A stretch of 42,684 nucleotides of DNA. Source: a virus (Duplodnaviria > Heunggongvirae > Uroviricota > Caudoviricetes). Numbering within the stretch: position 1 is the stretch's first letter; every line of letters begins with the position of its first letter. Of the stretch, positions 1 to 36,108 are shown piece by piece. The notes under the pieces are model-generated. The model did not search any database, was not told the origin of the DNA, and saw only the letters and a list, made by a program, of their open reading frames with translations. Where the stretch lies: IMG/VR virus record IMGVR_UViG_2529292907_000016. The stretch is one strand, 5' to 3'. The position numbers were made by a program, and so were the translations under genes.

Positions 1-933
1 TCATTCACTCTCTTTCAAACCAGTTTTAACTGTTTGTGGTTTTGGGTAAGGCTGGACTTTGAATAGCTTTGTGTTAAGGCGTTTTCTGGCTCTCTTGTCC
101 AGAAACCGGATGTAACGAAACTGACGGAATTTATGAACACTGGCTCTGTCGATATTAGCCCGCAGATGTTCACCTCGCTGTCCTCCTCGTTTGATTGCAT
201 TCTTGCAAATCTCGTGATACCACTCGCCATCAAGTTCATAGAATGTTGTTTCATGACTGCCTACATAATCAAAATTGCTTGCCTGGTACACGACACCAAG
301 ACAGCCACAACGCTCATCTGCAAACGACTGAACCCACTGCACCTGCGGATAAAGTTGTCTGATTAGTTTGAGCGCGTAACTGATTGCCCTTGATTCGGAG
401 TTTCTCGGCATACAGTCATGCAGCCATAACCGGTTAAGCTCCATATATTCGCGGTTCTGCGTGCCAGTTACGACGCGTGCACCATTGTTTGGATTAAGGG
501 CATAACCCCATTGCATTACGCCAACCAGCTCCCGTTCTGAAAATATGCCCAGATGAAGGTAGGAATTATTTACGAAACGATGGCTGTAATGTTTATTGAC
601 GACGACCAGCCGGGCCAGCCAGCAACTTATTGTCTCAACCCGTAACTCACGGGAGCCATAACCGACGATATTGTCGTTATAGTGAATAAGTTCAGGCGTG
701 CTGATGATACGGGATGTAACTTGCTTTCTGTTCCCCACGACAGGATTTCCTTGTGTATGTGGGGTGCTCTGTGGCGCTCTGAGATGTGATTTGATTGAGG
801 GTTTTACAGCGCGGACATTTAACTTCCAGATAACTGAAGCTGGCTCGTGCCAGTAGCTTGTTACAATGTCGGCACCGTATGTTTCGATACATGGCCGCAT
901 AACCTCCTGCTTTGTTGTTGATATCTTTATCAC
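1..933 (-). CDS. mom: Mom-like DNA modification protein; true start probably near the com stop (~700), not the GTG at 933
   Basis: Last ORF before the prophage right end, overlapping a Com-like zinc-finger ORF in another frame as in Mu com/mom; no canonical start codon seen in frame near com stop. Confidence 0.55.
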
Positions 934-937
934 TCAA
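692..937 (-). CDS. com: Com-like zinc-finger translational activator of mom (likely start at ATG 890-892, MYRNIRC...)
   Basis: Motif [10 protein letters not shown]...EVKCPRCK (C4 zinc finger) resembling Mu Com; overlaps mom 5' region. Confidence 0.65.
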
Positions 938-1030
938 TCGATCGACAAAAACGATCGATTTGATTTATTTAATTGATACAACAAATAACACGAAATGTCA
1001 TTAGCGAAAATTTATGAGTTTGATCACTAA
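936..1030. promoter_or_regulatory. Candidate mom/com regulatory region: three GATC sites and a perfect 9-bp inverted repeat (AATCGATCG / CGATCGATT)
   Basis: GATC at ~940, ~953, ~1022 upstream of com; Mu mom promoter is known to be controlled by Dam methylation of upstream GATC sites. Confidence 0.45.
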
Positions 1031-1148: not shown

Positions 1149-1442
1149 ATGGACAATCATGTAACGACGAGAAATCGAAAAATGATTGAAAATGCGGAAA
1201 TCTATAATGATTATTTTTCCGATTATTCAGATGCCTGCAAATACAGTTCGAGTGCGGGAGAGTTCATATGCTTCAACTTTTTTATTAAATCTTATGTTTT
1301 TCCTCCACAGCAAGAAGATGGAGGTGTGCCACCTCCTGAAATCACTTTGCACCGTATAGCCTCCGTCTCAATGATGGAGCAACAGGCTAATGAGCTGTAT
1401 AGCATTCTGGGAACGATTCTACAAAAGCGTGAATCGGACTAA
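1149..1442 (+). CDS. Hypothetical protein (97 aa), AT-rich, divergent from com/mom
   Basis: ORF with RBS-like AAGAGG 7 nt upstream of ATG; low-GC relative to flanks. Confidence 0.4.
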   Translation: MDNHVTTRNRKMIENAEIYNDYFSDYSDACKYSSSAGEFICFNFFIKSYVFPPQQEDGGVPPPEITLHRIASVSMMEQQANELYSILGTILQKRESD

Positions 1443-1609: not shown

Positions 1610-1864
1610 TTACATCATGGTACTGTCAGTTCCGGGCTGAGCCGGGTCTGGTTGCTCTGGCTGCGCGTCGGTTTTCGGCTCATTATCAGCATCACTGGCC
1701 GCAACTGCTGGCCCAATAAGTTTTGCCAGCACTTCATCAACGTAAGTGTCGATTTGTGCCTCAAAATCCTTGCGGACCTGCGCTTTCAGCAACTTATTTA
1801 CTTCACCGGAATACAGTGCCTGTTTTACCAGGTCTTCAGTGACGGTGCCTTTAATTTCTGGCAT
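1610..1864 (-). CDS. Hypothetical protein (84 aa), acidic Pro-rich C-terminus
   Basis: Strong RBS AAGGAGG upstream of ATG; antisense + ORF 1607..1993 looks like junk. Confidence 0.55.
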   Translation of the reverse strand: MPEIKGTVTEDLVKQALYSGEVNKLLKAQVRKDFEAQIDTYVDEVLAKLIGPAVAASDADNEPKTDAQPEQPDPAQPGTDSTMM

Positions 1865-1899: not shown

Positions 1900-2094
1900 T
1901 CAGGGCTGGGTCGGGTCTTTTGGGAGCGGAGTTACCTGCGCTGTTTTACTGAGTTTTTCAGCTGCTGCGTCCTCAATTTTGCGGCGAACATAATTTCTGA
2001 TGGCCTTATAACCACCACTCACCAGATATAACGCACATACTGCCGTGCAGAAATACAATAAAATAAGCTGTAAAAATGTCATTATCCCTCCCAA
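1900..2094 (-). CDS. Small membrane protein (64 aa, one N-terminal TM segment)
   Basis: RBS GGGAGGG upstream; hydrophobic stretch FLQLILLYFCTAVCALYLV. Confidence 0.5.
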   Translation of the reverse strand: MGGIMTFLQLILLYFCTAVCALYLVSGGYKAIRNYVRRKIEDAAAEKLSKTAQVTPLPKDPTQP

Positions 2095-2226: not shown

Positions 2227-4281
2227 TTACGCGTTATTCACTTCCACCACGATACTGTCAATCAGTACCGGGTAAGTCGCATTTTTAGTGATATCGGTCA
2301 CGCGCAACTTGTCTGCCGTAAACGTGCCGACCGGAGACTGCGACAGCATGAATGGTGTCCCGTCCTTACCATCAATGACCGGCGTCACCTCAATACTGTT
2401 GTTACCGGCAAAACGGAAGCCCAGCGTATGCCATTCGTTATTAAATGCGCCGAATGACCCCAGCTTCGTGTTCTGCGCCGTGTTTCCTTTGTGATACATC
2501 ACGTTAAGGTCTGTGGCATCGCTCTGTACGTAGAACGATGCCAGCAGGTTATGACCGGCATTTCCTTCCAGAGTAACCCCTTGCGGCAGGGCAGAAACCG
2601 GCCAGTACAGCGCCAGTGCGTACTGATTAGCCGTAAGCGCGCCATCGAGTTTAAAACGACAACTGACAAGACCACCTTTACCCAGCAGGTCCGCACCATT
2701 ACCAGCATCATGCTCAAGGTACCAGGGGGCTCTTCCTGTTTCCTTGGTCAGTTTCATTGCCTTACCCCCGCTGGCTCCGGCATCATCCACGATTTGAGCC
2801 TTGCCACCTCCGGCAGCCCAACCCTGTGGTGTCAACCGTCCTTCAGACTCAGATGCCCGGTAAGCAAATAGCGTACTCATCGTCGTGGTGTCTGCGGGTG
2901 GCGTGGACGGTTTTGATGGTGTATCAGGTGACGGCTTCTCATCCGGTGGTGTCACGGTCTGCCCGCGCATCAGTTCAGCCGTGCGCCCTGCATGGAGCAT
3001 AATAGCTGAGGCCAGACGGTCTGAAATGACGCCCCTGCGTGCCCATGAGCTGAAATGGCTGTCACGCTGTGTCGAAACAAAACTGCCCTGGGTTCGGGAT
3101 GCTGCACCGTAATACCCGACAGCCACAATATCCGGGTCTTCCGCCGGAGCATTCGTTGGCGTGCTCTGTCCATTCTCATCCGTCAGGAACGGTACAAAGA
3201 AAATTTTCTGTGCTTCCTTGCCTTTGTAGCCACCGTATACTGCCTCATATTTATCGGTGCCAGCGTTTTTCCAGTAATACGTGGTATCTCCGCAAATCCA
3301 CGGCACCGTGGTGGCATTTCCACTCACGCACTGCGCAGCAAGCGGAGCCAGGTCAGTTCTGAACTGCTGAACCATGGCCGTGAATAAACTATTATGCTGC
3401 TGGCTTCCTGAGGCAAGGTCTGCCTCTCCCTGCATCCAGACCACAGCCAGAAGTTTGTTTTTCGGGTTTTTCGCCAGCGCGACTTTGGTGCGGCTTACCA
3501 GGTCCTGATACAGAGGTTTACCGGCCCCCCAGCGTGAAGAATCAGCGGAAGCACCGCTGGCCTCACTGAATGAGCCGTCGGCTCCAGTGGTGAATGCTGA
3601 CCCGCCACGACAACAGGGCACCAGAAGTATCCCGGCATTCTGTGGGATATAGGGAAGCAGTTTTTTGGCAATATGCAACCCCTGACCGACAGTCCCGTAC
3701 TGGCCTTTTGCCAGATCAGCTTTCGGGTGGTTTATCCCGCTCATATCCTGAACATCATGCAGGCAGTGGTCTGCCGGAATGATGTCGTTGTATGTACACG
3801 ACGTACCGTTGGGCGTTACCGTACTGCGGCGTGCCAGTTGCTTAATGCGTGGGTCCGGGCGGTCAAACGAATCCGGTAACGGCAGCCCCTCGCCGTAGGC
3901 CATGCCATTTGACTGACCCGCGAGAATGACAACAAAGTAATATTCCGGCTCTGAACTGCTGCCATTCGTGCTACCGGAAGGCCCGGCGTTATCCGGTGCA
4001 TTCCAGTCGGAGGGCGTGAGCGTTCCGGCCACGTCAGATGTGATTGGAATGATGCCAGTCACGCCTGAACTGGTGATTTCTGCACTGGGATTACCGGATA
4101 CCGGCATTACCCATAATGGCTCTTTCGTGCTGAAGCGGATCACGCAGTCTGCGAAGGTGATCCCCCCTTTATTACCCGAAGGGCGGAAAGGGCTTTCAAT
4201 AAATGCCACCGTGCCACCGGCAACCTTGACTGAAAACTCTCCGGGCATGGCGGAGAGCATTTTCCACTTGGAGTCTGACAT
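2227..4281 (-). CDS. SASA-domain (sialate O-acetylesterase, NanS/NanS-p-like) esterase with Pro/Thr-rich linker and C-terminal beta-rich domain
   Basis: Motifs ILAGQSNGMAYGEG and WMQGEAD typical of SASA family; no signal peptide; linker TPPDEKPSPDTPSKPSTPP. Confidence 0.6.
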   Translation of the reverse strand: MSDSKWKMLSAMPGEFSVKVAGGTVAFIESPFRPSGNKGGITFADCVIRFSTKEPLWVMPVSGNPSAEITSSGVTGIIPITSDVAGTLTPSDWNAPDNAGPSGSTNGSSSEPEYYFVVILAGQSNGMAYGEGLPLPDSFDRPDPRIKQLARRSTVTPNGTSCTYNDIIPADHCLHDVQDMSGINHPKADLAKGQYGTVGQGLHIAKKLLPYIPQNAGILLVPCCRGGSAFTTGADGSFSEASGASADSSRWGAGKPLYQDLVSRTKVALAKNPKNKLLAVVWMQGEADLASGSQQHNSLFTAMVQQFRTDLAPLAAQCVSGNATTVPWICGDTTYYWKNAGTDKYEAVYGGYKGKEAQKIFFVPFLTDENGQSTPTNAPAEDPDIVAVGYYGAASRTQGSFVSTQRDSHFSSWARRGVISDRLASAIMLHAGRTAELMRGQTVTPPDEKPSPDTPSKPSTPPADTTTMSTLFAYRASESEGRLTPQGWAAGGGKAQIVDDAGASGGKAMKLTKETGRAPWYLEHDAGNGADLLGKGGLVSCRFKLDGALTANQYALALYWPVSALPQGVTLEGNAGHNLLASFYVQSDATDLNVMYHKGNTAQNTKLGSFGAFNNEWHTLGFRFAGNNSIEVTPVIDGKDGTPFMLSQSPVGTFTADKLRVTDITKNATYPVLIDSIVVEVNNA

Positions 4282-31280: not shown

Positions 31281-31703
31281 TCAGAAAAGCCGGGGCTGCG
31301 TGCGCTCCTGATGCAGGCGACGCTGGTTGCGGATAACGGAGTAAATCTGCGTCTCTGACATCTGGTAGTGGCGGCGCAGGGTTTCAATTTTTTCGCCCTG
31401 GCTCCAGCGGGAAAAAATTTCATTATTGCGCAGTTCGGTGAAAAGGGATTCACCGACCGGGAGATAATAACCACGCCCGCCCATGTACCCGGCCTGTGCG
31501 GCTGCAACCTTACGGGCAAGCATTCCCGCCTGAGCAGGTTCAATCCCCTGACGGTGCAGTTCAGCACTGATCACATCAACCAGGTCCCGCAGCGTGCCGG
31601 GCCAGTTCTTTTTCAGCTCATCATCAGGAATATCATCCAGACGGTCAATCAGCGCGTGCAGCTGTTCGCTGTCACCAAACATGCTCATCTGTGTTTCAGC
31701 CAT
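31281..31703 (-). CDS. Mor/C-family transcription activator (only one copy present)
   Basis: 140 aa with GGRGYYLPVG motif and C-terminal HTH; lies between gemA and lys. Confidence 0.7.
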   Translation of the reverse strand: MAETQMSMFGDSEQLHALIDRLDDIPDDELKKNWPGTLRDLVDVISAELHRQGIEPAQAGMLARKVAAAQAGYMGGRGYYLPVGESLFTELRNNEIFSRWSQGEKIETLRRHYQMSETQIYSVIRNQRRLHQERTQPRLF

Positions 31704-35577: not shown

Positions 35578-36108
35578 TTATTTATTCAGTCCGGCGTCCT
35601 GTTCAAAAGGCTCGACATAAAAACTTTCAGCGCCTTTATTCACCTTTATACCGGCAATGCCCTTCACCGCATCTGGCTCCGCCAGGACAGCTTGCTTATT
35701 CACTTCCTCTTTCGTGCGGATGAAGCGCTCAAGGCCCATACGGCGCAGCATTTCAATCACGCCTTCCACATCACGGCTGACGCTGCATGATGGCGTTCCC
35801 AGCCGCCATGACACCGTTCCGGTGGTCAGATTGGCTGTTTTGGTTTCGCCGCCGTTCGTCAGCTCATTGCGGTTGGTTTTACACCAGTCATGAATCCCCT
35901 TAAAAAGCACTTTGATTTCTTTTTTAAGGTTTTCAATCTGCGGCGTATAACGGGCGGTGATTTCTGCCACTTCGTCATTCATCGCCGTTTCCAGGCGTAG
36001 TGCCTCACGCTGCATATCCCCAAAGCGTCGGATATCGCGGCTGACCTCTTCACGGGTCTGCGGTGCTGCCTCGGCTGCGGCCTTTAATTTTGTAACGCGT
36101 TTAGCCAT
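35578..36108 (-). CDS. gam: Gam-like host-nuclease inhibitor (DNA end-binding)
   Basis: 176 aa; strong resemblance to Mu Gam (…DIRRFGDMQREALRLETAMNDEVAEI…NGGETKTANLTTGTVSWR…). Confidence 0.8.
   Translation of the reverse strand: MAKRVTKLKAAAEAAPQTREEVSRDIRRFGDMQREALRLETAMNDEVAEITARYTPQIENLKKEIKVLFKGIHDWCKTNRNELTNGGETKTANLTTGTVSWRLGTPSCSVSRDVEGVIEMLRRMGLERFIRTKEEVNKQAVLAEPDAVKGIAGIKVNKGAESFYVEPFEQDAGLNK

Follow-up and report, generated by a model that had tools for sequence, protein, structure and literature searches.

The closest described relatives of the locus analyzed here are the com-mom operons of phages Mu, D108, and SfMu, with which it shares its genes and an overlap of com with mom in the +1 frame; in these operons, transcription is under Dam, OxyR, and C control, and mom translation depends on Com by way of a hairpin over the start site. 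In Mu, the promoter Pmom is controlled by Dam and OxyR (PMC3378877), and the GUG start codon of Mom is located in the stem of a translation-inhibition structure, termed TIS (PMC6483171). The same work reports a SELEX-derived Com motif and a GA dinucleotide that is crucial for recognition by Com (PMC6483171). In Mu (AF083977), com spans 35768-35956 and mom is annotated from GTG 35907, preceded by a ribosome-binding site at 35896-35899; the two genes overlap by 50 nt, with mom in the +1 frame. The late promoter, annotated with a length of 67 nt, is situated wholly between the last GATC and the ribosome-binding site of com. A parallel can also be drawn to the Dam/OxyR switches of Salmonella P22 gtr, opvAB, and E. 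coli agn43, in which GATC sites are likewise 13 nt apart in a ATAGnTnnnAnCTAT-like dyad corresponding to an OxyR dimer half site. In P22 gtr, each GATC pair with this spacing is contained in one OxyR half site, and OxyR no longer binds once the GATCs are methylated (PMC2909390). In FluMu (HI1522.1/HI1523), Pnm1, and B3, com precedes a non-Mom methyltransferase (N6-adenine), whereas the gene following com in our case encodes a true Mom that is 78% identical to Mu Mom.

The window, that is the whole stretch of 42,684 nt that was analyzed and to which all coordinates refer, is a Mu-like E. coli prophage in reverse orientation. Its bases 1-1200 are 100% identical to prophages across many complete E. 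coli genomes, and a relative of the locus is present in 233 of 5426 genomes searched. The mom product gives a full-length match to Pfam PF25680 (E 1.6e-77, 260 bits, profile positions 1-202 of 202), is assigned to PHROG 1384, and aligns with Mu Mom from residue 1. The com product matches Pfam PF10122 (Zn_ribbon_Com, E 7.5e-13) and the PHROG ‘gpCom control of modification’, and shares 45% identity with Mu Com, including the CxxC...CxxC cysteines; NCBIfam models matched neither Mom nor Com. PGAP (NCBI) annotates identical DNA with mom at 738..1 and com at 892..692, naming the latter ‘Com family DNA-binding transcriptional regulator’, which is misleading because the literature describes an RNA-binding translational activator. 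A sequence-only reading had placed a Mu-like com/mom control region here, and comparison with Mu, including homology of the upstream palindrome to the Dam/OxyR region of Pmom, supports the assignment to a Mu-type control region of this DNA-modification operon. Coordinates of all features are collected in Table 1.

Table 1 Features of the com/mom control region, in positions of the 42,684-nt window
Feature	Position	Strand	Details
mom coding sequence	1..738	-	245 aa; GTG start 738-736, stop 3-1
com coding sequence	692..892	-	66 aa, zinc-ribbon translational activator; stop codon 694-692
TIS (translation-inhibition hairpin)	733..764	-	CCCCAC (764-759) pairs with GUGGGG (738-733)
mom GTG start	736..738	-	Within 3' arm of TIS; homologous to annotated Mu GTG 35907 and its RBS
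Com-target RNA hairpin	764..777	-	Stem GCGC/GCAC with one C.A mismatch; 6-nt loop CACAGA ending in GA
com Shine-Dalgarno AGGAGG	903..908	-	10 nt before com ATG; read from sequence; kept throughout the clade of the window
Putative promoter H1, candidate weak -10 GTGATAAAGATATCAA	918..933	-	Aligns with TATACT/TATAGT -10 hexamers of L049-L051
Palindrome AATCGATCG-N7-CGATCGATT	936..960	.	Conserved GATC-N9-GATC (940-943, 953-956); presumed Dam-sensitive OxyR half-operator
Best match to 37-nt OxyR tetramer consensus	941..977	-	ATCAATTAAATAAAT-N7-ATCGTTTTTGTCGAT; 13/20
Putative alternative promoter H2	973..1001	-	ATGACA (1001-996)-N17-TATCAA (978-973); read from sequence
Third GATC	1022..1025	.	Not conserved, probably incidental

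We interpret the region as a module of a Mu-like prophage that regulates its com-mom operon in two layers as in Mu, and assign this reading a probability of about 0.78. At the DNA layer, the GATC-N9-GATC palindrome would serve as a Dam-methylation-sensitive operator, most likely consisting of one OxyR dimer half-site and a weaker half-site at 977-963. Un- or hemimethylated, the operator would be bound and the promoter shut; full Dam methylation would prevent binding. At the RNA layer, com and mom would be co-transcribed and mom translated from a GTG inside com, in the +1 frame, whose hairpin would lock both the start codon and its Shine-Dalgarno sequence until Com, by binding to the GA-loop hairpin adjacent to it, opens the mom start site.

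The DNA layer is supported by conservation of the GATC pair. GATC-N9-GATC occurs a single time in 42.7 kb, and of 36 distinct relatives, 30 carry it upstream of com, phage Mu among them; both GATCs are invariant in alignment A3, with variable flanking bases. For Mom homologues lacking com, the preceding 330 nt contain at most one GATC and in no case the pair, which thus travels with com. Homology with Mu extends beyond the tetramers: the Mu sequence AATCGATCGgtaatacaGATCGATT is preceded by ATCAATTAAA, the window sequence AATCGATCGtttttgtCGATCGATT by ATCAATTAAAtaaatca, and both phages have, upstream of com, a AATCGATCG...GATCGATT palindrome bearing two GATCs at a distance of 13 nt as well as the ATCAATTAAA flank. 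The 13-nt geometry also equals that of P22 gtr, and the core ATCG-N7-CGAT resembles ATAG-N7-CTAT. The OxyR consensus match has the same score and a homologous position in Mu, and its half-site scores 7/10, but 13% of composition-matched shuffles reach the full score (6% for Mu). The inference of OxyR as the binding protein therefore draws on homology to Mu and not on the motif. Compared with gtr, which has two GATC pairs, and agn43, which has three sites, both with demonstrated phase variation, the window has a single conserved pair together with the translational lock by Com.

The promoter itself is less Mu-like. Mu late promoters share an ATAAyCCC-type element, located at Pmom between the GATC region and a weak -10, and the regions upstream of lys (Plys-like) and I (PI-like) in the window carry CCCC cores; in contrast to Mu, the region upstream of com has neither an ATAAyCCC C-activator box nor a T6 run with a TAAGAT -10. 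Neither a Mu-type C box nor any CCC run was detected in 893-1148, and the Mu transcription model can therefore not be transferred one to one. A C-family activator, 40% identical to Mu C, is encoded at 31281-31703. A scan for consensus sigma-70 promoters in 600-1500 returned none on the minus strand. Spacing differs likewise: the GATC pair starts 64 nt from the com ATG in the window compared with 91 nt in Mu, and GATCGATT lies 43 nt from it versus 70. Distances of 64-70 nt are found in the clade of the window, L006, and L049-L051, distances of 84-106 nt in Mu, a D108-like contig (L056), L007, L017, L018, L052, and L054. With the pair 27 nt closer to com and the C box missing, the operator must overlap or follow the core promoter, an arrangement also present in gtr and agn43. 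Two candidate promoters can be read from the DNA. H1 would put the -10 near 930-923, the most variable stretch within the clade. The alternative, H2, consists of ATGAC and TATCAA elements, which the subgroup of the window shares with the L033 subgroup where the homology between the two ends, and lacks a -7 T; it would place the GATC pair at about +5 to +30.

These deviations bear on the strongest competing explanation, in which a factor other than OxyR would recognize the GATC pair in a methylation-sensitive manner, either SeqA acting on hemimethylated replicating phage DNA or the C homologue (31281-31703), with Pmom rewired. The shift toward com, the lack of a Mu-type C box, and the non-significant OxyR motif match all fit such a scenario, and the palindrome would lie roughly in the activator zone if the -10 is at ~930-923. 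On the other hand, homology to the Dam/OxyR-governed region of Mu is clear for both the palindrome and the ATCAATTAAA flank to its left, and no copies of the palindrome arm were found at the equivalents of the lys, I, and P late promoters in the window; the absence of CGATCGATT (up to one mismatch) from these other late promoters argues against a C site. We regard a non-OxyR factor as unlikely. A somewhat less doubtful, still tentative proposal concerns the whole compact group, namely the clade of the window, L006, and L049-L051: the GATC pair may have been shifted into or just downstream of the core promoter with loss of the C box, so that mom would be gated mainly by methylation of the two GATCs, as in agn43 and gtr and possibly as a phase-variable lysogen switch, or the C homologue may recognize another site, which may itself be sensitive to methylation. 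Either variant, if true, would amount to a rewiring of the classic Pmom circuit.

A role of the palindrome in RNA was also considered, as an intrinsic terminator on the plus strand or as a stem in the 5' untranslated region of the com mRNA. A terminator scan indeed flags 936-960 on the plus strand, followed by TGATTTATTT, and transcription from H2 would place the hairpin in the com leader. However, plus-strand transcription toward the palindrome could only be antisense to mom and com, the minus strand has no U-run, and the arms change without compensation among relatives (TTGATCA versus CGATCGA in L051) while the GATC tetramers and the N9 spacing are invariant. This pattern fits a site for a protein or methylase and not a stem, and makes the RNA-hairpin explanation very improbable compared with the DNA operator.

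Three relatives, L049, L050, and L051, have a small hairpin of another kind in their com leaders, ~20-40 nt upstream of the com ATG, with compensatory changes (GCCAC...GTGGC versus GCCG...CGGC) and a loop containing CCTCC or CTTCC, the complement of the com Shine-Dalgarno GGAGG. This hairpin is absent from the window and may provide com itself with an additional block to translation.

GTG is a standard start codon in bacteria. Scanning the mom frame within 933-480 for ATG, GTG, and TTG yielded positions 933, 900, 738, and 516 only; none occurs in 735-517 and hence none at or past the com stop. The sequence-only reading had reported the lack of a mom start near the com stop, which holds for this downstream stretch, but had missed the GTG at 738-736 within the com/mom overlap, inside com and 44 nt upstream of its stop. 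Its suggestion that mom lacks a canonical start and may be initiated non-canonically is contradicted by this codon, which is conserved, has a Shine-Dalgarno sequence (AAGGAA, 752-747) 9 nt upstream, and is homologous to the Mu GUG. It has the same frame relation as in Mu, with an overlap of 47 compared with 50 nt, and the N-terminus of Mu Mom, MGKEKK--SRI, aligns with Mom read from this position. PGAP selected the identical start on 100% identical DNA. The GTG is kept in all close and many distant relatives; in L006, L009, and L069 it is the sole available mom start, and in L033-L046, which are the closest relatives with 97% Mom identity, the frame is closed by a stop 27 codons 5' of it, with no start in between. 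The idea of a non-canonical codon (ATC, ATT, or ACG near the com stop) or of an unconventional Com-driven mechanism could draw on the stretch 735-517 being free of ATG, GTG, and TTG, yet given the conserved GTG with its AAGGAA and the homologous GUG of Mu (PMC6483171) it deserves hardly any credence. The mom start, as read from the DNA, is the canonical, conserved GTG 738-736, and since it sits in a hairpin within com as in Mu, an unusual start codon is unnecessary.

The mom frame of the window is open for 65 further codons upstream of the GTG, across the whole of com (738-933, minus strand), a feature confined to its own subgroup. A longer Mom isoform, using this 310-codon open frame from the in-frame ATG at 900-898, was rejected: this ATG sits only 2 nt past the com AGGAGG, and close relatives have the stop 27 codons 5' of the GTG and no alternative start. 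The extended frame is thus an accident of the subgroup.

Folding of the RNA at 780-731 predicts two adjacent hairpins with a minimum free energy of -14.3 kcal/mol (z -2.17; 4 of 200 shuffles equally stable), and the same layout was recovered in six of six sequences folded (the window, Mu, and four other relatives). As in Mu, a CCCAC/GUGGG stem holds the GTG in its 3' arm and the Shine-Dalgarno sequence in its loop, and a Com hairpin (4 bp, 6-nt loop) is located immediately 5' of the TIS stem. In the predicted fold of the window TIS, AAGGAA is additionally paired with UCCUGU in an inner helix, so that GTG and Shine-Dalgarno are both sequestered, one by the outer stem and the other by the inner helix. 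The window TIS has 6 bp and a 20-nt loop with this helix, compared with 5-6 bp and an 11-nt loop in Mu; being longer and pairing the Shine-Dalgarno sequence, it is predicted to be more stable than that of Mu. The CCCAC...GUGGG stem with the Shine-Dalgarno in its loop and the GTG in the Mom frame is kept in ten diverse relatives, including Edwardsiella, Scandinavium, and several viral contigs. Its bases are invariant among relatives because two reading frames constrain them; the TIS itself displays no covariation, and its support thus derives from conservation and energetics.

Covariation is found at the adjacent Com-target hairpin. All four of its pairs show compensatory changes across 11 relatives, with 93% of cells paired (AUGC/GCAU in Mu, GCAC/GUGC in L006 and L054, GCGU/ACGC in L051); the covariation score was matched by none of 500 shuffles and slid-register controls collapse. 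The loop ends in GA in every relative aligned, and 780-761 (AGAGCGCCACAGAGCACCCC; A GAG CG CC ACA GAG CA CC CC) fits the SELEX-derived motif for Com, NGAGNNCC(N)2-3GAGNNCCNN, without deviation. Unlike in Mu, the window hairpin carries a C.A mismatch, and it is weak when folded alone; in variant L028 a synonymous change restores a U-A pair at the mismatch. C764 has two possible pairings, one within the Com hairpin and one that makes up the sixth pair of the TIS. In a model consistent with this dual pairing, Com binding would favor the small hairpin and loosen the TIS. The RNA anatomy as a whole is best read as Com-dependent translation of mom. Searching 500-1700 against Rfam with permissive E-values returned no curated family for the com/mom leader; the single match, to IS102 (E 0.54), is attributed to chance.

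Regarding the number of GATC sites, the three sites upstream of com and the perfect 9-bp inverted repeat (AATCGATCG / CGATCGATT, arms 936-944 and 952-960, 7-nt spacer) that contains GATC were described correctly in the sequence-only reading; conservation in relatives applies to the pair at 940 and 953 and fails for the third site at 1022, which is absent from close relatives. The latter is limited to the subgroup of the window (L024, L041), and the L033-L048 group (97% identical) has unrelated sequence at this position. It is not homologous to the first GATC of Mu, which has no counterpart in the window. Counts alone do not exceed chance, and the pair is meaningful because it is conserved: the window contains 127 GATCs versus 162 ± 13 in dinucleotide-preserving shuffles (100 of 100 reach at least 127), that is fewer than expected, a second GATC triplet within 86 nt exists elsewhere, and five perfect 9-bp inverted repeats with spacers of up to 12 nt compare with ~2.3 in shuffles. 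An origin of cluster and palindrome by chance in AT-rich intergenic DNA, as these unremarkable counts of triplets and repeats might suggest, is excluded for the GATC pair by its conservation across genera, always upstream of com and missing from com-less mom loci, and is the best reading only for the third GATC at 1022.

The surroundings of the operon differ from those of Mu. In Mu, gin abuts the GATC sites, whereas the upstream neighbors in the window are a divergent small ORF and DUF826, DUF1378, and DUF6645 genes. The gin-com interval contains genes without Mu counterpart at 1182-1442 (+), 1610-1864 (-), 1900-2082 (-), and 2227-4281 (-), encoding the divergent 86-aa ORF (no Pfam or PHROG match), DUF826 (phrog_311), DUF1378 (phrog_494), and a 684-aa DUF6645 protein. 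Because of these extra genes, the com upstream region is bounded differently from that of Mu.

Mapping by blastn against an otherwise 99% identical prophage in NZ_OZ547136 revealed a 2.77-kb insertion at 8961-11726, harboring an IS66-family transposase (9323-10924; PF03050, E 2.7e-90) and an IS66 Orf2-like TnpB (10931-11617). The baseplate gene region is disrupted by this insertion, which probably renders this copy of the prophage defective. The stretches 40391-41730 and 41819-42684 have no match in the NZ_OZ547136 prophage locus, and the left-end (immunity/early) region, host flank, and insertion site therefore appear to be different.

ARAGORN found no tRNAs in the window, and a ‘tRNA-OTHER’ annotated by PGAP in the reference (L004 20966-21045) is unsupported. 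Among Mom homologues lacking both com and the GATC cluster (~69% identical), a same-strand tRNA-Gly(UCC) gene or remnant adjoins mom in 10 of 39 loci, with diverse tRNA sequences: genes are present in L086 (633-706), L088 (1310-1384), L094 (1306-1379), L097 (1218-1291), L101 (1306-1379), and L015 (2457-2531), remnants at ~1225-1285 in L079, L090, L092, and L093. The co-substrate of Mom is Gly-tRNA(Gly) (PMC13219725); a term search of the text of this paper found no mention of a linkage between mom and tRNA-Gly. The linkage could reflect co-substrate supply or merely a tRNA-linked insertion site.

Collectively, the locus belongs to the well-studied Mu com/mom system, and its only mildly novel aspect is a compact promoter without recognizable C box. 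No exotic initiation needs to be assumed for mom, whose GTG start, TIS, and Com hairpin all follow the textbook pattern of Mu, and the earlier misreading is corrected accordingly. Comparison with relatives contributes covariation in support of the Com-target hairpin and points at the GATC-N9-GATC pair, instead of three GATCs, as the conserved core of the presumed Dam-sensitive operator in enterobacterial com/mom loci. The shorter promoter without C box is a modest, testable variation, which could tell how a toxic anti-restriction gene stays silent in a prophage of ~4% of complete E. coli genomes.
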